Virus record (IMG/VR): IMGVR_UViG_2721755658_000005
Coordinates: 1 to 46,563 of that record
Length of the DNA stretch: 46,563 bases
Strand: one strand, 5' to 3'
From: a virus
Lineage: Duplodnaviria > Heunggongvirae > Uroviricota > Caudoviricetes
Of the stretch, positions 4,081 to 46,563 are shown piece after piece; the stretch's first letter is position 1, and every line of letters starts with the position of its first letter. Below the pieces are notes generated by a model, which was given only the letters and a program-made list of their open reading frames with translations, made no database searches and was not told the origin of the DNA. Made by a program: the position numbers and the translations under genes.

Positions 4081-5793
4081 CTAATTGGTCTCTATAATTG
4101 AGCTTAATTCGTTAATGAGCAGGTGAGGGCTCATTTGAGTTAAGTCATACTGCCGCCCCAATTTCTCTTGCATTCCTCCTCGTATTTTCTTTAATAAATA
4201 TTTGCCTTTAATGTTATTAACTGATGTCGGAACTTGGTTTCCAAATAATGTTAGGTGTCGAGGGCATGCTTCCAGTCTCCCCTTATATAAATTATATTTA
4301 ATCACCTCTCTTTTGGATTGAAAATCAGACTGGATGACAACATGATTTTGTGCGGCTATATCAGTAATCCATGTTTGTATATCTTGCACAGAAGAGCCTG
4401 TAACATGAGATAAATGCTCTATTCTGGTAAAATAACTCTCAATATCACTACCTTCAGTAATGAATGGAATGGCGCCACCTCTTTGAATTTCTGCTTTTAC
4501 TATATCTACTTCTTCATCAGTCATAAAATCGCGGTCACGATGAATTATAACCTTGCAATTAGGGGACATTTCCTTAAGAAGGTCAGCAGATACAATTGCT
4601 CCTTGCACATTTGTGCATGTTTTGTAGCTATAGACTGCAGTTCTCTCCATATCAAAACCATTATATTGTAAAAGGGCCTTGAAATATTTTTTATCTCTAT
4701 CTTCAGTGAGAAATATATTCTCCACAACTCCTTCAGTTACTCTATCCAAGTCATTTAAAGCTCCTAAATCTAAGAACATTGATATTTTGTCCAAATCCAT
4801 GCCTTGATTCTGAACATTACCATCTTTCATCCAAATAAAATTTGCCTCTCCATACAATGAATCAATTATATGTTTGCTATGAGTGGAAAGTATAACTTGA
4901 GTTTCTGATTTGTTATTTTCTGATATTAAACTCAATGAGTCAGTGAGAATATATTGATTATCAGGGTGAAGATGAGAATCCGGTTCATCTAAGAGTAATA
5001 ATTTAGGTTTGAAATATACTATATATGCAAATATCTGTAATGTTTGAAGTAATCCAGTTCCCGCCAACTCGATAGGGTAATTTTTCCCACTTGCATTTTC
5101 TTTAAAATTAACGGTTAGATAAGTATCTTTATCCTCTTTGAAATCCACTTCGATTTCTATATCTGGAAATACAACTTGCAGCATGCTATTGAGATTTACC
5201 AAGTGGTTATCTTTGTTCAGATAGTATATGACATTCCTTAAGTATAAATTTGCATCACCACTTGCCACTCCTCTTCTAACTATTGCTGGCGATTTTAATT
5301 CTTCCTTCTGTGAGATACCAGCCAGACCAGGGACATATATACTAAAGAGATTTTTTTCATCGGTGATTACTGAACCGAAGCCGGTATAATCACCGGTTCT
5401 TTCACATGACATATTTCCATGATTTCGTCCCTTAGATATAATTATATTGTATTCTAATTGTCGACCAGCAAGATCATCATATCCAAAAAGACTCAACACA
5501 CTTTGATTGCCAGGCGACCTCGAATTCTTATAAGGTTCGCCGTTCTTTAAAACAGTGAAGTCTGGGGTGATATTATACATTAAAAGTTCAGTAGAGAATG
5601 TTTGTTGACTTTGTTGCCGAGCGGCAATAGCTGCGCATACTGAAAAATGTATAGCTTGCAGAATACTGCTCTTACCTGAACTATTTGCCCCTACTAATAC
5701 ATTTATATCACTAAGGGTGATTTCTGCTGTGTCAATTTTTTTGAATTTACTAACAGACAAAGACTTAATGAACATTTTCTTTTCCTTTTTCAA
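4081..5793 (-). CDS. OLD-family-like ABC-type ATPase with C-terminal TOPRIM-like region; candidate phage-exclusion protein
   Basis: Walker A GANSSGKSS, Walker B LLLLDEPDSHLHP, H-loop-like LSTHS; C-terminal acidic motifs FLTEDRD and IIHRDRD; gene visibly AT-rich compared with flanking DNA. Confidence 0.6.
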   Translation of the reverse strand: MKKEKKMFIKSLSVSKFKKIDTAEITLSDINVLVGANSSGKSSILQAIHFSVCAAIAARQQSQQTFSTELLMYNITPDFTVLKNGEPYKNSRSPGNQSVLSLFGYDDLAGRQLEYNIIISKGRNHGNMSCERTGDYTGFGSVITDEKNLFSIYVPGLAGISQKEELKSPAIVRRGVASGDANLYLRNVIYYLNKDNHLVNLNSMLQVVFPDIEIEVDFKEDKDTYLTVNFKENASGKNYPIELAGTGLLQTLQIFAYIVYFKPKLLLLDEPDSHLHPDNQYILTDSLSLISENNKSETQVILSTHSKHIIDSLYGEANFIWMKDGNVQNQGMDLDKISMFLDLGALNDLDRVTEGVVENIFLTEDRDKKYFKALLQYNGFDMERTAVYSYKTCTNVQGAIVSADLLKEMSPNCKVIIHRDRDFMTDEEVDIVKAEIQRGGAIPFITEGSDIESYFTRIEHLSHVTGSSVQDIQTWITDIAAQNHVVIQSDFQSKREVIKYNLYKGRLEACPRHLTLFGNQVPTSVNNIKGKYLLKKIRGGMQEKLGRQYDLTQMSPHLLINELSSIIETN

Positions 5794-38337: not shown

Positions 38338-39275
38338 CCTCTGAATCCTGCCGGGATCTGGCTGTAGTCCACGTTGTCGTAACTGGCTTTGAAGTACGGG
38401 TCCTCGCGTTTTTCGGTGTACGTGCTGACGGACGGCGATAAGCGCAGGGAAAGCTCATCCCATTTTTCCCGCAGCTTCGACGGGCTGAGCACGTTACGGC
38501 ACCAGAACGGATCGCGGCTGACGCGGCTGTACATCTCGCAGATTTGTTTGTGAGTACGCCCATCCTGTACACACATCAGGCGAATTTCGTTTGCCCAGGC
38601 TGTCCAGTTCGGTTCTTTGGGACGAACCACCTCGCCGTCACATTCGGCGGCTTGCTCGTACAGGGCGATGATTTTTTTCCAGAGCCACTGTGCGCAGGTC
38701 AAATCATCCTGCGTTCCCCACTGGCGCTTTTTAGGGCTGAATACAACCGCATCAGGATGGCGAGTTAAAAAATCCTGTTCATCCGTCTGCGTGTCCGGTT
38801 GCGAAGCGTCCGGACGAGAAGGTTTTTTATCTGACGGATCATGTTTTGATTTTACTGACGGATCCCCGCCAGATTCTGACGGGTGAAAACCCGCTTTTTT
38901 GCCAGATTTCGACGCATCAAATTTTGACGGGTCAGATTTTGATGCGTCAGATTTTGACGGGTCAGAATCTGACAGTTGAGAAAATGCCGCTGCCTGAAGC
39001 TTCGCAACGTTAAGCTGATAAACATTCGACGCATTGCGGTTACCCTGGCGACGCGCCTTACGCGTTAACCAGCCTTCTGCTTCCAGCCGTGCGATAGCCG
39101 TCCTGACGGTACTCATCCCCGCGCCAATCTGACGGGCAATAGTTTCAATTGATGGCCAGCACACACCTTCGTCATTACTGAAATCAGCCAGGCGGGCCAT
39201 AATTGCCACGCTGGATAATTTCATGCCTGATGCAGCGCAACCATCCCATACATAGCCGGTTAATTTAGTGCTCAT
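38334..39275 (-). CDS. Replication initiation protein (lambda O-like, N-terminal HTH) containing origin iterons
   Basis: N-terminal HTH region; internal SDPSKSDASKSDPSKFDASKS repeat encoded by DNA iterons. Confidence 0.65.
   Translation of the reverse strand: MSTKLTGYVWDGCAASGMKLSSVAIMARLADFSNDEGVCWPSIETIARQIGAGMSTVRTAIARLEAEGWLTRKARRQGNRNASNVYQLNVAKLQAAAFSQLSDSDPSKSDASKSDPSKFDASKSGKKAGFHPSESGGDPSVKSKHDPSDKKPSRPDASQPDTQTDEQDFLTRHPDAVVFSPKKRQWGTQDDLTCAQWLWKKIIALYEQAAECDGEVVRPKEPNWTAWANEIRLMCVQDGRTHKQICEMYSRVSRDPFWCRNVLSPSKLREKWDELSLRLSPSVSTYTEKREDPYFKASYDNVDYSQIPAGFRG
38828..38975. repeat. Iteron array (about 8 copies of a tcagattttgacgg-like unit); candidate replication origin
   Basis: Tandem degenerate direct repeats visible in sequence inside the initiator gene, as for lambda ori within O. 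Confidence 0.6.
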
Positions 39276-39623
39276 GACCGACCTCTATTTCCCTGAATTT
39301 ACGACGAAACTGTTCGAGCGGGCTGAAGCACTCATGCTCATAGCCTTCGCGGAGGTAGATAACTCGTTGTGTTTCCGGCTCCCAACGAATGACTCTGACG
39401 GGCACTCCGTAGTGATCTTTGAACCAGCGGTTAACTTGTCGCAAAGGACTGTCTCCTTCTGCCGGTTGAAATCACCCACAGCCCACTCAGCAAAGCTGTG
39501 GGTTACAATTTCCCTGTCACCTGGTACATTAACTGCATAGCAATACTCCACCTTCGCTTTTCCACCCGGTACAGGAAGCGCAATCAGTTGCGAGCGACGG
39601 TAGTGTGTTGTTAAACTGTTCAT
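39272..39623 (-). pseudogene. Frameshifted phage gene (two protein-like frames joined near 39450..39475)
   Basis: N-terminal frame reads [21 protein letters not shown]...AEWAVGDF; a second frame reads ...[56 protein letters not shown] and ends overlapping the next gene start. Confidence 0.45.
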
Positions 39624-40228
39624 GCGTTAGTTTCTCCACAGTCACGACACGCCACGGCGCCCGGAGCTGCACACTCGCGGGCGTCATTACTTTCTGAAAT
39701 GCAAAAGATTTTGTAGACCAGTGCTGCATGCTCCTGCAGCTTCGAAATTGAGAGATACAGCTCGTCGTTAATTGCTGTCTTCTCATGCGGTTCCACTACA
39801 CCGTCTTCGATTGCTGAACGAATCTGTTTTGAATAACTGCCGATCTGTTCAATGACTTCCAGCAGACGCTGGTTAATATCGGCGTTGTCCACATCCTCGA
39901 CGTCAGGAAGAGACACAAAGACGCCATTGGCAGACTGCGCCACAGCGTCAGCAATGAAGTGAGTTCCACCAGCACGTTGCAAAATCATTGCCCATCCCAG
40001 CGGGAAAATCTGATCGCCATCGGCACGAAGGCGGTTAAATAATGCGTTTTCTGTTACATCCAGCCAGTCAGCTGCTTCAGCGTAACCACCCGGCAACGCT
40101 GCGATAGTTTTTCTGACAGCTTTCACGTACCACTCAGGCTGTTTTTCTACTTTCCAGTGATGCTTACCCACGGTTAGCCTCATCGTTCTGTGGTTTCTGT
40201 TAATCGATTTATCCATTAGATTTTTCAT
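39620..40228 (-). CDS. CII-like phage regulatory protein (YdaT-like)
   Basis: Position directly after the Cro-like gene; start taken at internal Met MKNLMDKS of tracked ORF 39620..40285. Confidence 0.45.
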
Positions 40229-40409
40229 AAAGCTCAGGTTTAAATGGCAACCGTCCGCAAGTTCTATATGCAGCTTCTGCTGCACGTCCTTTTGGAATTA
40301 ACTGGCCCGGACGGTTTCGCCACTGATAAACGGCTTCAGTTGTTATGCCGAAAAAAGCAGCAACTTTCTCAATACTGCCGAAGTAGCTTTCGATATCGTC
40401 AGTTGTCAT
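40209..40409 (-). CDS. Cro-like HTH repressor (YdaS family)
   Basis: 66-aa product with HTH FGITTEAVYQWRNR; divergent from the CI-like gene. Confidence 0.7.
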   Translation of the reverse strand: MTTDDIESYFGSIEKVAAFFGITTEAVYQWRNRPGQLIPKGRAAEAAYRTCGRLPFKPELYEKSNG

Positions 40410-40506
40410 ACGCCCTCCAAACTAAGTTTTATTAGATGCTAATTACAAATCTATCTTTGGTCAATAAAAACTAAGATTACTTAGCAATTCAAGAAATGGT
40501 GCTCCT

Positions 40507-41133
40507 ATGGAAACGGTTGGTCAGCGTATAAAAGCTCTGAGAAGAGTTACCGGAACGTCCCAGAAAGAATTGGGTAAATTTTGTGGAGTAAGCGACGTTG
40601 CTGTGGGGTACTGGGAGAAAGACATCAATACCCCTGGTGGGGAGGCACTTTCGAAATTAGCGAAGTTCTTCAATACGTCAATAGATTACATTCTTTATGG
40701 TGCTGAGTTTGAAGGCAAACTCGTCACAAACATGCGCAGAGTTCCTGTAATATCGTGGGTTCAGGCTGGGCAGTTTACTGAGTGCAGGGCAGCAGAAGTG
40801 TTTAGTGAAGTGGACAAGTGGGTAGATACATCATTAAAGATTGGTGATAACTCATTTGCATTAGAGGTTAAAGGTGACTCCATGACTAACCCTAATGGCC
40901 TCCCAACAATACCAGAAGGCGCAACAGTGATTGTAGATCCAGATGCAGAACCTCGTCATGGAAAAATAGTCATCGCTCGACTTGATGGAACAAACGAAGC
41001 TACAGTAAAAAAATTAGTCATCGATGGCCCTCAAAAGTTTTTAGTGCCATTAAATCCTCGGTATCCCAACATCCCTATCAATGGTAATTGCCTTATCATT
41101 GGTGTAGTCAAAGGAGTTCAATACGAACTCTAA
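40507..41133 (+). CDS. CI-like repressor with S24 LexA-type autopeptidase domain
   Basis: N-terminal HTH; C-terminal catalytic serine context GDSM and lysine in ATVKKL. Confidence 0.85.
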   Translation: METVGQRIKALRRVTGTSQKELGKFCGVSDVAVGYWEKDINTPGGEALSKLAKFFNTSIDYILYGAEFEGKLVTNMRRVPVISWVQAGQFTECRAAEVFSEVDKWVDTSLKIGDNSFALEVKGDSMTNPNGLPTIPEGATVIVDPDAEPRHGKIVIARLDGTNEATVKKLVIDGPQKFLVPLNPRYPNIPINGNCLIIGVVKGVQYEL

Positions 41134-41380
41134 GACCTCTCTTCTCTAACTAAGGCACCGAACTAAGAAAAGTTTGGTGTTTTCTCTTGCCATGATAACT
41201 AAGTTAAGTTAGATTTTATATCAAAGATAACGAACAGGCAGGACGCCCACGAAGTAGCCGCCTGGGGCATATGAAGTCCAGGATGATTCGTTAGCAACAA
41301 AAAAGCGCCCTACAGGACGCTTAGCTCTTTAACAATCTGGTCCCCATCAACAAGTAACTGATAACTTGAGGAGATGTGAA

Positions 41381-41587
41381 ATGCACAAAACAGAACCCAA
41401 AATCGTCGCGCCTGGCTACACAGATGAGGAAATTTATGAGTGGATGACAAAGAAGCTGGCAGCTATAAACCAGCTTCGTGAAGTGCTGTCTTATCGACAG
41501 GAAACAATAGACTCCTTAAAAAAACTGGATCAGGAAATCACGGTTTTATCACAGGATGTTACTTTAGATATTGTGCAGACAAATTAG
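41381..41587 (+). CDS. Small hypothetical protein downstream of cI
   Basis: gaggag RBS upstream of the ATG at 41381 (tracked ORF 41366..41587). Confidence 0.4.
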   Translation: MHKTEPKIVAPGYTDEEIYEWMTKKLAAINQLREVLSYRQETIDSLKKLDQEITVLSQDVTLDIVQTN

Positions 41588-41993
41588 GATCCCATTCATT
41601 TTCGTCAAAATCATCAAAGTGATGAATTTGTGATCTCCAGTCTCGATAATCTAAAAATTTCTGGGCGGTTACGCTTATTTTATCAAGTGTGAGTTCATCC
41701 TGAATTGAAAGAAGAAGTTCATCAAATTTCATCTCATTAATCTGTTTTGGCATCCAGTGATGCTTCATCAGAATAAGGTGAACCAGAGCCTTTTTCCCAT
41801 TCAATTGATTATAGGGAGTGCCGAATTTCTTCCGGTGCTCATGTAAGACAAGGTCCAAAAGAGTAAGTAATGTTGCCCTTGATTCAACTTTGCTTATTTC
41901 GACTGATGACACTACCCCACTGATTTCAATGCCCCGATACTTTCCAACATTTTCACAGTGGGATTTGTACAGCGTATAGATATTACCGGACAT
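41559..41993 (-). CDS. AT-rich hypothetical protein in the immunity region (rex/sie-position moron)
   Basis: 144-aa ORF, AT-rich, convergent with the cI transcription unit; no recognised family. Confidence 0.45.
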   Translation of the reverse strand: MSGNIYTLYKSHCENVGKYRGIEISGVVSSVEISKVESRATLLTLLDLVLHEHRKKFGTPYNQLNGKKALVHLILMKHHWMPKQINEMKFDELLLSIQDELTLDKISVTAQKFLDYRDWRSQIHHFDDFDENEWDPNLSAQYLK

Positions 41994-42520
41994 TTCTTTT
42001 CCTTTTGCGTTGTTGGGGATAACCAGATTAACCGAATCCTTGTTGTTGGGGAATAACTAGGTCCACCTCGCCTGATGTGGCTAAAAGCAGGCACATAACA
42101 GCTAAGTATTTTCAACCAGAGAGAATCCTTAGCGTTGTGGTGAATGCGGCTCAGCGCACGCGGGTTAAGGTTGAGGCTGACAGTCGACCTTCTGTGGATA
42201 CCCACCCGCCTGGTGTGCAACCTTCACCCGGCACCACAACTTTATGCTGTGTGTAGTCCTGGCGGTACCAGTTTGTACCCTTGCTTCCGGCTGGTACCGT
42301 CCTTTTTACAAAACAGAGAAGAGCATCACCGGACGACGGGCTCATAACCCAATCCATCCGGGCGGCTGCCACCGCAGGTGTTCTTCTCTGTTTTGTGGAG
42401 AAACTAACCGCCCCTACGGGGGCATTTATGGAAATGTAATTGACTCAATAATCGCCGGACGGTGAGGGCTTCCTTTTACCCGAATTCAGCGCGGTGCAGC
42501 GCATATACGTGGAGAACAAA

Positions 42521-43057
42521 ATGTCATTTATTAAAACTTTTTCCGGGAAGCATTTTTATTATGACAGGATAAATAAAGACGACATCGTTATTAACGATAT
42601 CGCGGTTTCCCTTTCAAATATCTGTCGCTTTGCAGGACATCTTTCACACTTCTACAGTGTCGCCCAACATGCGGTGCTTTGCAGCCAGCTGGTGCCGCAG
42701 GAATTTGCTTTTGAAGCTTTAATGCATGATGCAACAGAAGCATATTGCCAGGACATCCCCGCACCACTGAAACGACTTCTTCCTGACTATAAACGGATGG
42801 AAGAAAAAATAGACGCCGTAATCCGTGAGAAATACGGGTTACCTCCTGTTATGAGCACGCCAGTGAAATATGCCGATCTCATTATGCTGGCAACCGAACG
42901 CCGCGATCTCGGGCTTGATGATGGCTCTTTCTGGCCTGTGCTGGAAGGTATCCCGGCAACAGAGATGTTCAACGTGATTCCACTGGCTCCAGGCCATGCC
43001 TACGGGATGTTTATGGAACGCTTTAACGAATTATCGGAGTTACGCAAATGCGCATGA
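42521..43057 (+). CDS. HD-domain phosphohydrolase (5'-deoxynucleotidase-like)
   Basis: H...HD motif in VAQHAVL...LMHDATEAY; ggaga RBS before the ATG at 42521. Confidence 0.65.
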   Translation: MSFIKTFSGKHFYYDRINKDDIVINDIAVSLSNICRFAGHLSHFYSVAQHAVLCSQLVPQEFAFEALMHDATEAYCQDIPAPLKRLLPDYKRMEEKIDAVIREKYGLPPVMSTPVKYADLIMLATERRDLGLDDGSFWPVLEGIPATEMFNVIPLAPGHAYGMFMERFNELSELRKCA

Positions 43058-43410
43058 ATGTTTTCGAAATGGAAGGGTTTCTTCGTGGGAGATGTGTACC
43101 GCGAGATCTGAAAGTGAATGAAACGGATGCTGAATACCTGGTGCGTAAATTCGATGCGCTTGAAGCTAAATGTGCAGCACAGGAAAACAAAGTAATACCA
43201 GTGTCAACTGAACTGCCACCAGCAAATGAAAGTGTTTTGTTATTCGATGCTAACGGAGAAGGCTGGCTAATTGGCTGGCGTTCTCTCTGGTACACCTGGG
43301 GACAAAAAGAAACCGGAGAATGGCAGTGGACATTTCAGGTCGGGGACCTTGAAAACGTCAATATCACTCACTGGGCAGTAATGCCAAAAGCACCGGAGGC
43401 TGGAGCATAA
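43048..43410 (+). CDS. DUF551-type phage protein
   Basis: C-terminal Trp-rich region GEGWLIGWRSLWYTWGQ typical of DUF551. Confidence 0.5.
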   Translation: MRMNVFEMEGFLRGRCVPRDLKVNETDAEYLVRKFDALEAKCAAQENKVIPVSTELPPANESVLLFDANGEGWLIGWRSLWYTWGQKETGEWQWTFQVGDLENVNITHWAVMPKAPEAGA

Positions 43411-43715
43411 TGACCACTTTTACCGACAAAGAACTGATTAAAGAAATTAAAGAGCGTATCAGCAGCCTTGACGTGCGAGACGATATTGAGCGCCGTGCTT
43501 ATGAAATCGCACTCCTATCTCTGGAAGTAGAACCAGATGAACGCGAAGCTTATGAATTATTCATGGAAAAGCGTTTTGGTGACTTAGTAGATCGTCGGAG
43601 AGCAAAAAACGGCGATAACGAATACATGGCATGGGATATGACTCTCGGTTGGATCGTCTGGCAGCAACGAGCTGGTATCCATTTCTCAACAATGTCACAG
43701 CAAGAGGTGAAATAA
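43410..43715 (+). CDS. Hypothetical early protein
   Basis: 101-aa ORF translationally coupled to flanking genes. Confidence 0.4.
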   Translation: MTTFTDKELIKEIKERISSLDVRDDIERRAYEIALLSLEVEPDEREAYELFMEKRFGDLVDRRRAKNGDNEYMAWDMTLGWIVWQQRAGIHFSTMSQQEVK

Positions 43716-44065
43716 TGGAGCCATACAGCCTCACACTCGATGAGGCCTGTCATTTTCTCAAGATATCCAGACCGACTGCCATTAACTGGATACGCACAGG
43801 GCGTCTTCAGGCAACACGCAAAGATCCCACTAAGAATAAATCTCCTTACCTCACAACACGACAAGCCTGCATTGCGGCTCTTCAGTCTCCGCTGCATACT
43901 GTCCAGGTGAGCGCGGGTGATGGCATAACAGAGGAAAGAAAATGTCACTCTTCCGCAGAGGTGAAATATGGTACGCCAGTTTCACATTGCCGAACGGTAA
44001 AAGATTTAAACAGTCTCTTGGAACAAAGGACAAAAGGCAGGCGACAGAACTCCATGACAAGCTAA
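43715..44065 (+). CDS. Excisionase-like DNA-binding protein (AlpA/Xis-type HTH)
   Basis: [33 protein letters not shown] is a typical Xis/AlpA HTH; the frame runs on past the integrase start, so the true stop is uncertain. Confidence 0.5.
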
Positions 44066-45105
44066 AGGCTGAAGCATGGCGGGTCAGCAAACTTGGTGAA
44101 ATACCTGATATAACGTTCGAGGAAGCGTGTGTCAGGTGGCTTGAAGAGAAAGCACATAAAAAATCACTGGACGATGACAAAAGCCGGATCGGATTCTGGC
44201 TTCAACATTTCGCAGGAATGCAACTAAGAGACATTACTGAATCAAAAATTTATTCAGCAATGCAGAAAATGACGAACCGGCGTCATGAGGAAAACTGGAA
44301 ACTCAGGGCAGAAGCATGCAGAAAAAAAGGGAAACCTGTTCCAGAATACACGCCAAAACCAGCGTCCGTTGCAACGAAGGCTACGCATCTTTCATTTATA
44401 AAGGCCCTACTAAGAGCCGCAGAGCGTGAATGGAAAATGCTGGATAAGGCACCAATTATTAAAGTGCCTCAACCAAAGAATAAACGGATCCGCTGGCTGG
44501 AGCCCCATGAAGCACAAAGGCTGATTGATGAATGTCCGGAGCCATTAAAGTCTGTTGTTGAATTTGCACTGGCAACAGGCTTAAGACGCTCGAACATCAT
44601 CAACCTTGAATGGCAACAAATAGATATGCAGCGCCGGGTGGCATGGATAAACCCGGAAGAGAGTAAATCAAACCGCGCAATTGGCGTTGCGCTGAATGAT
44701 ACTGCATGTCGCGTATTGAAAAAACAAATCGGGAATCATCACCGTTGGGTATTTGTGTACAAGGAAAGCTGTACCAAACCAGACGGAACGAAAGCGCCAA
44801 CAGTAAGGAAGATGCGGTATGACGCAAACACAGCCTGGAAAGCGGCGCTGAGACGGGCTGGTATTGATGATTTCAGATTTCACGACTTGAGACACACCTG
44901 GGCAAGTTGGCTGGTTCAAGCCGGAGTCCCGTTGTCAGTGTTACAGGAAATGGGAGGCTGGGAGTCTATCGAAATGGTTCGTCGATATGCTCACCTTGCA
45001 CCTAATCACCTTACCGAACACGCACGGCAAATAGACTCGATCCTGAACCCATCGGTCCCAAATTTGTCCCAGTCAAAAAATAAGGAAGGTACTAATGATG
45101 TGTAA
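43942..45105 (+). CDS. int: Tyrosine integrase (phage integrase family)
   Basis: N-terminus [28 protein letters not shown]; C-terminal R...H..R...Y context (HDLRHTWAS...RYAHL); ends 15 bp from tRNA-Thr. Confidence 0.9.
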
Positions 45106-45119
45106 CTTATTGATTTACA

Positions 45120-45195
45120 TGGTGCCGATAATAGGAGTCGAACCTACGACCTTCGCATTACGAATGCGCTGCTCTACCAACTGAGCTATATCGGC
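45120..45195 (-). tRNA. thrW: tRNA-Thr (anticodon CGU)
   Basis: Reverse complement reads GCCGATATAGCTCAGTTGGTAGAGCAGCGCATTCGTAATGCGAAGGTCGTAGGTTCGACTCCTATTATCGGCACCA with anticodon loop TTCGTAA. Confidence 0.9.
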
Positions 45196-45309
45196 CCTGA
45201 AAGGACATGTTCACGAACGTGAATCACGGTGGACAAGGTTAAAACTAACCGGGCGATGCGTCAATGGCCTTGTGAATCAAATGGCTACTTTTGCATCACC
45301 CGGTTTTAT

Positions 45310-46563
45310 TTACGCACGAATGGTGTAATCACCAATGCCGATCCACTTGTAAGTGGTCAGTGCTTCCAGCCCCATTGGGCCACGCGCGTGGAGTTTTTGT
45401 GTGCTTACCGCCACTTCCGCACCCAGACCAAACTGGCCGCCGTCGGTAAAACGCGTAGAGGCGTTAACGTAAACAGCGGACGAATCCACTTCGTTAACAA
45501 AACGCTGGGCGTTGCGCATATCGCGGGTCAGGATCGCATCGGAGTGTTGTGTGCCGTGTTCACGAATATGGGCGATGGCATCGTCAAGATCGCTGACGAT
45601 TTTGACGTTCAAATCTAATGACAGAAACTCATCGTCATACTCTTCGGCTTTAACAGCAACCACCTTCGCAGGGCCTGCCTGCAACTGCGCCAGTGCAGCT
45701 GCATCTGCGTGTAATGTCACGCCGCTTTCCGCCATTTGTTTGCTTAATGCAGGCAGGAAGCTATCGGCGATGTTTTTATTCACCAGCAACGTTTCAACCG
45801 TATTACATGTGCTCGGACGCTGAGTTTTCGCGTTGACGATCACTTTTAATGCTTCAGCGATCTCTACACTTTCATCAACGTAAATATGGCATACGCCTAT
45901 ACCACCTGTGATCACCGGGATTGTCGACTGTTCACGGCACAGTTTATGCAAACCAGCGCCACCACGCGGGATCAGCATGTCGATGTATTTATCCATACGC
46001 AGCATTTCACTGACCAGCGCACGGTCAGGATTATCAATCGCCTGCACGGCACCCGCCGGTAAGCCGCAGGATTTCAGGGCGTCCTGAATCACCGCCACCG
46101 TTGCAGCGTTAGTGCGACACGTTTCTTTGCCACCGCGCAGGATCACCGCATTACCGGTTTTCAGGCACAGCGAAGCGACATCAACCGTCACGTTCGGGCG
46201 CGCTTCATAAATCACGCCAATAACCCCCAGCGGTACGCGACGACGCTCAAGACGCAGGCCGCTGTCCAGTACGCCGCCATCGATTACCTGCCCCACCGGA
46301 TCGGCGAGGTTGCACACCTGACGTACATCGTCGGCAATGCCTTTCAGCCGTGCGGGCGTCAGTGCCAGACGGTCAAGCATCGCTTCGCTAAGGCCATTGG
46401 CTCGCGCGTCAGCAACATCCTGGGCGTTAGCGTTGAGGATGATTTCGCTTTGTGCTTCCAGTTCATCGGCGATTTTTTCCAGCACGCGATTTTTTTCGCG
46501 GCTGGAGAGTTGCGCTAATTTATACGAGGCTTGCTTCGCGGCAATGCCCATTTGTTCCAGCAT
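45310..46563 (-). CDS. proA: Gamma-glutamyl phosphate reductase
   Basis: 417-aa product [38 protein letters not shown] matches E. coli ProA as recalled; start codon at the window edge. Confidence 0.95.

Follow-up and report, generated by a model that had tools for sequence, protein, structure and literature searches.

The stretch of DNA analyzed here (hereafter the window), the whole 46,563 nucleotides of the caudoviral record IMGVR_UViG_2721755658_000005, is an SfIV/SfV-like lambdoid prophage inserted at tRNA-Thr(CGT) (45120-45195), in which two small, convergent genes lie beside the cI-type repressor gene. Sequence comparisons across distantly related prophages indicate that these two open reading frames (ORFs) are one mobile two-gene module, which stays linked over three kinds of genomic site and obeys a fixed orientation rule. 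We refer to its components by size:

41381-41587, plus strand: small gene, coding for a 68-aa acidic protein of the YdfC family (ATG start at 41381; WP_000549623.1 in RefSeq)
41559-41993, minus strand: large gene, coding for a 144-aa protein of the ECs1072 family (WP_000016389.1 in RefSeq)

The original prediction for this DNA, made from its letters alone, had described a 68-aa ORF on the cI strand and a convergent AT-rich 144-aa ORF, and both were recovered as described, with a GC content of 40.6% and 37.7%, respectively, against 50.1% for the window. It had also called them unrecognized, which has to be revised, since NCBIfam places the 144-aa protein in its ECs1072 family and the 68-aa protein is homologous to YdfC. 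The large protein matches NF033230 ('ECs1072 family phage-associated protein') with 157.8 bits (E=1.7e-46) over profile positions 2-142 of 142, the cutoff of this model being 70 bits, and is also a member of phrog_5286. Its relatives score comparably, viz., 105.7 bits for ECs_5703 of O157 Sakai, 167.5 for an unannotated ORF of phage ST64B, 148 for the protein of locus L016, and 134.5 for that of L008. NF033230 is a family by name only ('hypoth_equivalog'), to which neither a function nor a partner nor an orientation rule is attached. The small protein matches phrog_1744 (E=6e-35) and aligns with E. coli YdfC at 41% identity over 66 of its 68 residues (BLASTP, E=8e-18). There is no curated Pfam or NCBIfam model of the YdfC family against which it could be scored, and it has no Pfam match at E≤0.1 and no PADLOC match.

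We inspected the surroundings of distant members of the large family, whose proteins are 22-72% identical to that of the window, and found that a YdfC-like ORF overlaps the 3' end of the ECs1072-family gene in convergent orientation in 10 of the 13 lineages examined. The paired loci are:

the window and SfIV
E. albertii
Serratia quinivorans
Salmonella phage ST64B, whose small gene is Sb50
four Klebsiella phages
L014, a metagenomic Rac-like prophage
L015-17, three genomes carrying P0103
L020/L021 and L022
O157 Sakai Sp4, with the namesake of the family, ECs_5703 (formerly ECs1072)

A lack of conservation in related prophages, which the original prediction had named as a refutation, is not what is seen, as both genes have distant homologs and recur as a pair. 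The partner ORFs start with a YdfC-like motif (M..EP....PG.t.EqL.dWl); the one that overlaps ECs_5703 in Sakai is unannotated and reads ...PHIWRGGLSDVELAEWL.... A hidden Markov model of seven small proteins also picked up the partners of L020, L021, L022, and Sakai, which had been outside its training set, and profile-profile comparison shows the small proteins of the YdfC type to be homologous to those of the Sb50 type (hhalign probability 96.9%, E=1.4e-10). Three kinds of site harbor the pair: directly after pL, as in the window, in the pR operon between the cII-like and replication genes (Sakai, L022), and between Q and the holin gene (ST64B, Klebsiella, Serratia, L020). Relative to the flanking lytic operon, the large gene runs antisense in 13 of 13 lineages and the small gene, wherever present, sense. 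Both families had already been catalogued; their antisense pairing and its orientation rule seem to be new to the literature. Reference annotations miss one partner of the pair: the large gene is unannotated in ST64B (NC_004313.1; 3281-3715 of L003, plus strand) and in Klebsiella phage KPP5665-2 (3818-4291 of L004), the ST64B and Klebsiella records showing the small gene only and in a form extended upstream (Sb50 as 119 aa), and SfIV and O157 Sakai in turn lack an annotation of the small gene.

Substitution patterns indicate that both ORFs are real genes under purifying selection. The ratio of nonsynonymous to synonymous substitution rates (dN/dS) is 0.05-0.17 over codons 1-47 of the small gene, the lowest or nearly the lowest of the six frames in two comparisons, and 0.21-0.24 over 93 substitutions for the large gene relative to E. 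albertii. We also considered whether the 68-aa ORF could be a chance ORF antisense to the 3' untranslated region of the large gene, which is excluded by its dN/dS and its homologs. The ORF list opens the small ORF further upstream, at a TTG at 41366; a strong Shine-Dalgarno sequence, GAGGAG, lies at 41368-41373. The convergent genes overlap by 29 nt, and one point of the overlap stands out:

41585-41594: TAGGATCCCA, one base off the palindrome TGGGATCCCA

Here the pairs of ST64B, Klebsiella, and Serratia (L003, L004, and L007) have W-D-P in both overlapping proteins, and from these protein motifs we infer that distant pairs carry the exact 10-nt palindrome TGGGATCCCA, which would encode W-D-P on both strands. 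The W of this motif is invariant throughout the large family, as no other residue is. In the window, the change to TAGGATCCCA is silent in the large gene and creates the stop codon of the small one. Some strains have TGG in place of this TAG (41585-41587) and so encode a 103-aa product, P0017, that continues ...TNWDP..., i.e., with W-D-P as in the distant homologs. The small ORF further contains a run of seven A (41518-41524), and database variants with one A more or less yield 80-aa and 61-aa products (P0047, P0052, P0056); such length variants could be real variation or homopolymer sequencing errors.

The module lies next to the immunity region, the relevant elements of which are as follows:

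40209-40409, minus strand: P22-Cro-like gene
40507-41133, plus strand: cI-type repressor gene, 208 aa, with HTH_3 and Peptidase_S24 domains ('LexA family protein' in RefSeq)
41148-41215, plus strand: putative oL/pL, with operator half-sites and a promoter-like sequence
41152-41182, plus strand: terminator-like hairpin directly 3' of cI (13-bp stem, -15.1 kcal/mol, z -2.6)

The hairpin is probably the end of the cI transcript; the SfV record has a rho-independent terminator annotated at the matching place. Half-sites reading AACTAAG occur at 41148, 41161, and 41197, and twice between cI and cro (40420, 40469), so that the cI-cro patch and the patch after cI account for five of the window's six copies. 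A consensus promoter scan finds the promoter-like TTGCCA-17-TAGATT on the plus strand at 41187-41215; SfIV and SfV, with a different repressor, have other repeats and a near-consensus TTGACA-16-CATAAT at the equivalent site. Homology of the window to these hetero-immune phages starts at 41229 (blastn, alignment), and the immunity-specific DNA 3' of cI therefore amounts to only 95 nt, which contain the hairpin, the operators, and the promoter. Given the hairpin, the operator repeats, the pL-like promoter, and the homology with SfIV and SfV from 41229 onward, we place oL/pL directly after cI. As oL/pL would then separate cI from the pair, the small gene is predicted to open the repressed early-left operon as its first ORF, in the position of N in lambda and under repressor control; no promoter of its own was found for it.

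This arrangement bears on the proposal of the original prediction that the two ORFs hold the rex/sie position and, as counterparts of rexAB or sieB, are exclusion genes expressed in the lysogen. The rexAB genes of lambda share a transcript with cI and are placed between it and oL/pL, and RexB and SieB are membrane proteins. Like rexAB of lambda and sieB of lambda and P22, which are active while the phage is dormant, the present genes are accessory to a lambdoid prophage and lie close to its immunity region. They literally lie beside cI, are AT-rich, and sit in a variable slot, and in one relative, L015 (GCA_049064105.1), a SieB-family gene (4806-5321; PF14163, 71 bits) adjoins the family member, being placed between cI and the pair on the strand of the large gene. 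The part of the proposal that concerns an accessory slot with variable cargo by the immunity region accordingly stands. The rex position itself does not, as the operators, pL, and a terminator lie between cI and the pair; likewise, expression in the lysogen is plausible for the large gene, based on its antisense position, a -10-like element, and a strand-specific terminator, but not for the 68-aa gene behind repressed pL. The likeness to the Rex and Sie proteins finds no support either: neither ORF has a Pfam match to RexA, RexB, or SieB (PF14163) or a PADLOC match, and neither protein has a membrane segment. The small protein, which is soluble (pI 4.8), reaches a maximal 19-residue Kyte-Doolittle mean of 0.29, and the soluble, near-neutral large protein one of 0.84. 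We hence see only the slightest chance that the pair is a rexAB or sieB equivalent.

The mobility of the module is apparent from the slot that it occupies, which was delimited by blastn homology breakpoints:

41293-42062: variable cargo slot, 770 bp, 39.7% GC

The breakpoints fall at 41292/42063 in comparisons with SfV and SfII and at 41340/42009 with PhiR29_1. The gene pair fills this slot in the window and SfIV, and other cargo does so in SfV (orf33), SfII (the 63-aa minus-strand gene SfII_36), PhiR29_1 (a 242-aa minus-strand gene), and strain 5CRE51 (a 171-aa minus-strand gene); none of these four cargo proteins has a known domain or defense match. The cassette and the repressor occur in different combinations, with one cassette beside two different repressors (window, SfIV) and the repressor of the window beside other cargo in 5CRE51. 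ORF35 and ORF36 of SfIV were reported as unique to it among the Shigella serotype-converting phages and as having no clear function (PMC3851460). Of 5426 complete E. coli genomes, 407 contain 80% or more of the slot. Taken together, the homology breakpoints indicate that it behaves as a cargo hotspot, or 'moron' slot, by the immunity region.

Candidate expression signals of the large gene are found on either side of the coding region:

42004-42052, minus strand: putative promoter and leader of the large gene, with a -10-like TATCCC (42021-42016) and TGG upstream
41303-41322, minus strand: intrinsic terminator, AAGCGTCCTGTAGGGCGCTT then TTTTGTTG (terminator scan and fold)
41452-41477, minus strand: 9-bp hairpin within the small ORF (terminator scan and fold)

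A CA-rich leader followed by an AAGGA Shine-Dalgarno sequence precedes the large gene. The -10-like element emerged only from a lenient cross-lineage comparison of its upstream regions, in which a TAnnnT hexamer, mostly with a preceding TG, stands roughly 20-50 nt (by eye) ahead of the ATG in 9 of 13 lineages; in the window, E. albertii, and L008 the hexamer is TATCCC or TATCCA. The terminator at 41303-41322 is strand-specific, its sequence having G.U pairing and a U-tract on the minus strand as against a C.A mismatch and no U-tract on the plus strand. It is probably the 3' end of the large-gene mRNA and is also present behind the minus-strand cargo of PhiR29_1, in the left boundary region 41293-41340. 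As it lies beyond the small ORF, a minus-strand mRNA starting upstream of 41993 would cross the whole of the small ORF in antisense, with the 9-bp hairpin as a possible earlier 3' end or processing site. In uninduced Sakai, ECs1072 was more than 4-fold lower at the transition to stationary phase (log2 -2.13, significant; PMC2241611, Table 2), which indicates indirectly, and for a prophage other than that of the window, that a measurable transcript is present in the growing Sakai lysogen. The -10-like element, the strand-specific terminator, the low GC content, and the antisense position together suggest that the large gene is plausibly expressed independently and on in the lysogen.

Separately, the motif AATCTGGT..CCCCAACAACAAG occurs in two copies upstream of the large gene (42004-42029, 42034-42052) and in an inverted copy upstream of the small ORF (41334-41354), the copies pointing at each start codon in the same sense. 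They may be leftover promoter or leader copies from cargo exchange, or a shared regulatory site.

Two small, overlapping, and mobile genes, one of them with an acidic product, could also recall a toxin-antitoxin or addiction module that stabilizes the prophage. However, the genes are convergent and are not co-transcribed, unlike the co-directional operons of type II systems, and the placement of the small gene behind a repressed promoter would leave the lysogen without its antitoxin. In addition, there are no matches to toxin-antitoxin families in Pfam or PADLOC and no hydrophobic toxin of the type I kind, and we consider this explanation very improbable.

The product of the large gene offers few clues of its own. 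A profile search of 1.84 billion cluster representatives recovered only 76 clusters of the large family, mostly single-domain proteins of about 145-155 aa, the remainder being shorter and apparently partial. Its AlphaFold model, based on a 48-sequence alignment, is confident and all-alpha (predicted local distance difference test score, pLDDT, 94.1; predicted template-modeling score 0.88) and matches no known fold. Near-invariant positions of the family are L50, R54, L64, G66, A69, H72, and W134. Neither the protein nor the family alignment has a relative in Pfam (E≤0.1), PADLOC, or the sequences of the PDB, and nothing was hit apart from the name-only families. Foldseek searches of the PDB with an earlier model (pLDDT 78) gave a best E of about 1, with a few HEPN- and Bcl-2-like rows that we regard as noise. 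A Foldseek search of BFVD gave no match. The HEPN motif Rx4-6H was considered for this family and dropped, as the site five residues ahead of the conserved H72 varies in the alignment, as judged by eye. A literature search on ECs1072, the accessions, the PHROG identifiers, and SfIVp36 returned one microarray table and no functional work.

Given this organization, we tentatively propose, as a reasonable possibility rather than a probability, an arrangement like that of Tha/Ith, with an effector expressed in the lysogen and an antidote made in lytic growth. A weak, extended -10-type promoter of its own would drive the large gene opposite to the lytic operon and keep it on in the lysogen; its mRNA would stop at the strand-specific terminator beyond the small ORF and thus lie antisense to the small gene. 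The large protein would act during lysogeny as an effector harmful to incoming phages or, more generally, to phage growth. The small gene, sense to the lytic operon (here that of pL), would be made only after loss of the repressor. Upon induction, transcription from pL would run antisense through the large gene and silence it, and would also supply the small acidic protein that neutralizes the large one, the two effects together sparing the lytic cycle of the prophage itself. The evidence for such a switch is architectural, and the function of the pair is argued by analogy; from this architecture we infer the promoter, the expression in the lysogen, the contact between the two proteins, and the anti-phage activity.

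The Tha/Ith arrangement was demonstrated experimentally in S. aureus phage 80alpha (Rostol et al. 2024, PMC11087260), where the Ith product and antisense transcription switch Tha off when the prophage goes lytic (PMC11087260). The likeness lies in the overlap of a prophage gene with a small gene of the other strand (here convergent, over 29 nt), in the location of the module in or beside the lysogeny region, and in a small gene that is misread or ignored in annotation. The proteins, however, differ: Tha is a HEPN RNase, and the 144-aa protein, with no HEPN match, has no sequence or fold relation to it. So does the control, as tha is on the cI promoter and ith on a constitutive promoter of its own (PMC11087260), whereas here a separate promoter apparently serves the large gene, and the small gene would depend on transcription of pL, pR, or the late operon. 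A further lambdoid-prophage defense gene with built-in sparing of its own phage is bstA with its aba element (Owen et al., bioRxiv 10.1101/2020.07.13.199331). It shows no homology to the pair. The bstA gene reportedly adjoins the repressor, and its self-immunity is said to come from a DNA element inside the gene and not from the protein of an overlapping antisense gene.

Several observations weigh against the switch. The large gene lacks a recognizable partner in L008 and L024, and in L023 it faces an unrelated convergent coiled-coil ORF without the motif. Conversely, genes of the YdfC type are frequently seen alone. Matches of this type account for the majority of the 692 E. coli records at 60-80% identity, 19 phage records have such a gene, and the single orphan ydfC locus that was inspected showed no trace of a large gene next to it. 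Over its N-terminal 47 residues the small protein hardly differs between E. coli and E. albertii, the large proteins being only 72% identical, so that there is no sign of co-variation, and the C-terminus of the small protein is truncated or frameshifted in E. coli lineages (P0017, P0047, P0056). The consensus scan finds neither a minus-strand promoter nor a -35 upstream of the large gene, where the hexamer is TATCCC. Finally, the large protein shows no similarity to catalogued defense proteins (PADLOC-DB v2), and neither a catalytic motif nor a fold relative was found for it.

Some of these points would be expected if the two genes were functionally independent, the YdfC-like gene being an ordinary conserved early gene and the ECs1072-family gene a moron that landed or was retained at its 3' end, with an incidental overlap. 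Each gene is found without the other, the tail of the small ORF is dispensable, and a comparison of E. coli with E. albertii shows a large gene that was replaced as a divergent block (dS about 0.8), the 5' two-thirds of the small gene staying with the conserved flank. Yet the pair recurs at three unrelated sites in 10 of 13 lineages, with large-protein identity down to 22-35% and always the same convergent overlap, and those slots that lack the large gene (SfV, SfII, PhiR29_1) also lack the small ORF. We therefore rate independence as unlikely; if the pairing had no functional meaning, the locus would be one more pair of uncharacterized prophage cargo genes.

The architecture and orientation fit equally well with the opposite polarity, in which the YdfC-like protein would be a lytic-phase effector with a takeover or growth-inhibiting role, and the large protein and its antisense mRNA a safety catch for the lysogen. 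YdfC itself is a small protein of unknown function encoded in the dicBF operon of Qin-type prophages (PMC5069750), where it stands among known toxic products (PMC5069750), its operon neighbors being DicB, DicF, and YdfD. Moreover, orphan small genes are common, as would be expected of a stand-alone effector. Against this, no toxicity or function of YdfC was reported in the literature searched, large genes without a partner exist, and a small gene that belongs to an early operon (pL or pR) in one set of phages and to the late operon, after Q, in another would be odd for a stage-specific takeover factor. It is this spread over early and late operons that makes us favor the small gene as an off-switch, and we regard the reversed roles as improbable. 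The relation to the Qin locus of K-12 itself extends beyond homology with the 68-aa protein, since both genes are promoter-proximal in a repressor-controlled early-left operon: ydfC follows the repressor gene in L018 and likewise in K-12 (PMC5069750). The Qin-type ydfC differs in being followed by dicF and dicB and in having no overlapping ECs1072-family gene.

The remaining features of the window lie around the slot and at some distance from it:

39620-40285, minus strand: CII-like gene
41229-41292, plus strand: early-left leader, the left flank of the slot (blastn boundaries, alignment)
42063-42440, plus strand: structured right flank of the slot, outside the pair, GC-rich, between the slot and yfdR
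43942-45105, plus strand: integrase gene

E. coli LR-06 has a nearly identical region, in which the annotated genes follow the same order. The 64-nt leader, just after the predicted start of pL, is 88-100% identical in SfIV, SfV, SfII, PhiR29_1, and ST64B and is kept regardless of the type of repressor or cargo; it folds no better than its shuffles (z -0.4). The right flank, in contrast, has a pL-sense fold of -155 kcal/mol (z -5.8, with 0 of 100 shuffles as good; the opposite strand has z -2.9). It is almost invariant among E. coli, E. albertii, SfV, SfII, and SfIV, next to a gene with a dS of about 0.8, and nine of its base pairs are kept despite changes on both sides, mostly from the 72%-identical ST64B copy. 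RefSeq carries it as a 'frameshifted hypothetical protein'; it has no Rfam match, the tRNA being the sole match in a scan of 39000-46563. Given that the SfIV/SfV phage group was reported to be without N (PMC3851460), we suggest that this segment could be a put-like antitermination RNA or a processing element. Compared with SfIV, SfV, and E. albertii, 17 bp (CGCCAGGCACCGGGAGG) are missing from the window at about 42223, inside the structured segment, as are about 1.25 kb at about 42421, with yfdP-like and yfdQ/DUF2303 genes, the latter deletion sitting between two similar GC-rich hairpins.

The cassette is common, with relatives in phages of Shigella, Salmonella (ST64B), Klebsiella, and Serratia and in O157 Sakai. 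In a wider and somewhat doubtful extension of the proposed switch, the ECs1072 family would be a new class of prophage anti-phage effectors and the YdfC peptides its dedicated inhibitors, with orphan ydfC genes, including that of K-12 Qin, serving in counter-defense; if so, an orphan ydfC would let its phage grow in cells with an ECs1072-type prophage. Should the pair indeed combine defense and antidote, a new effector fold would be added, YdfC would gain its first testable function, and the Tha/Ith principle would extend from staphylococcal to lambdoid enterobacterial phages.

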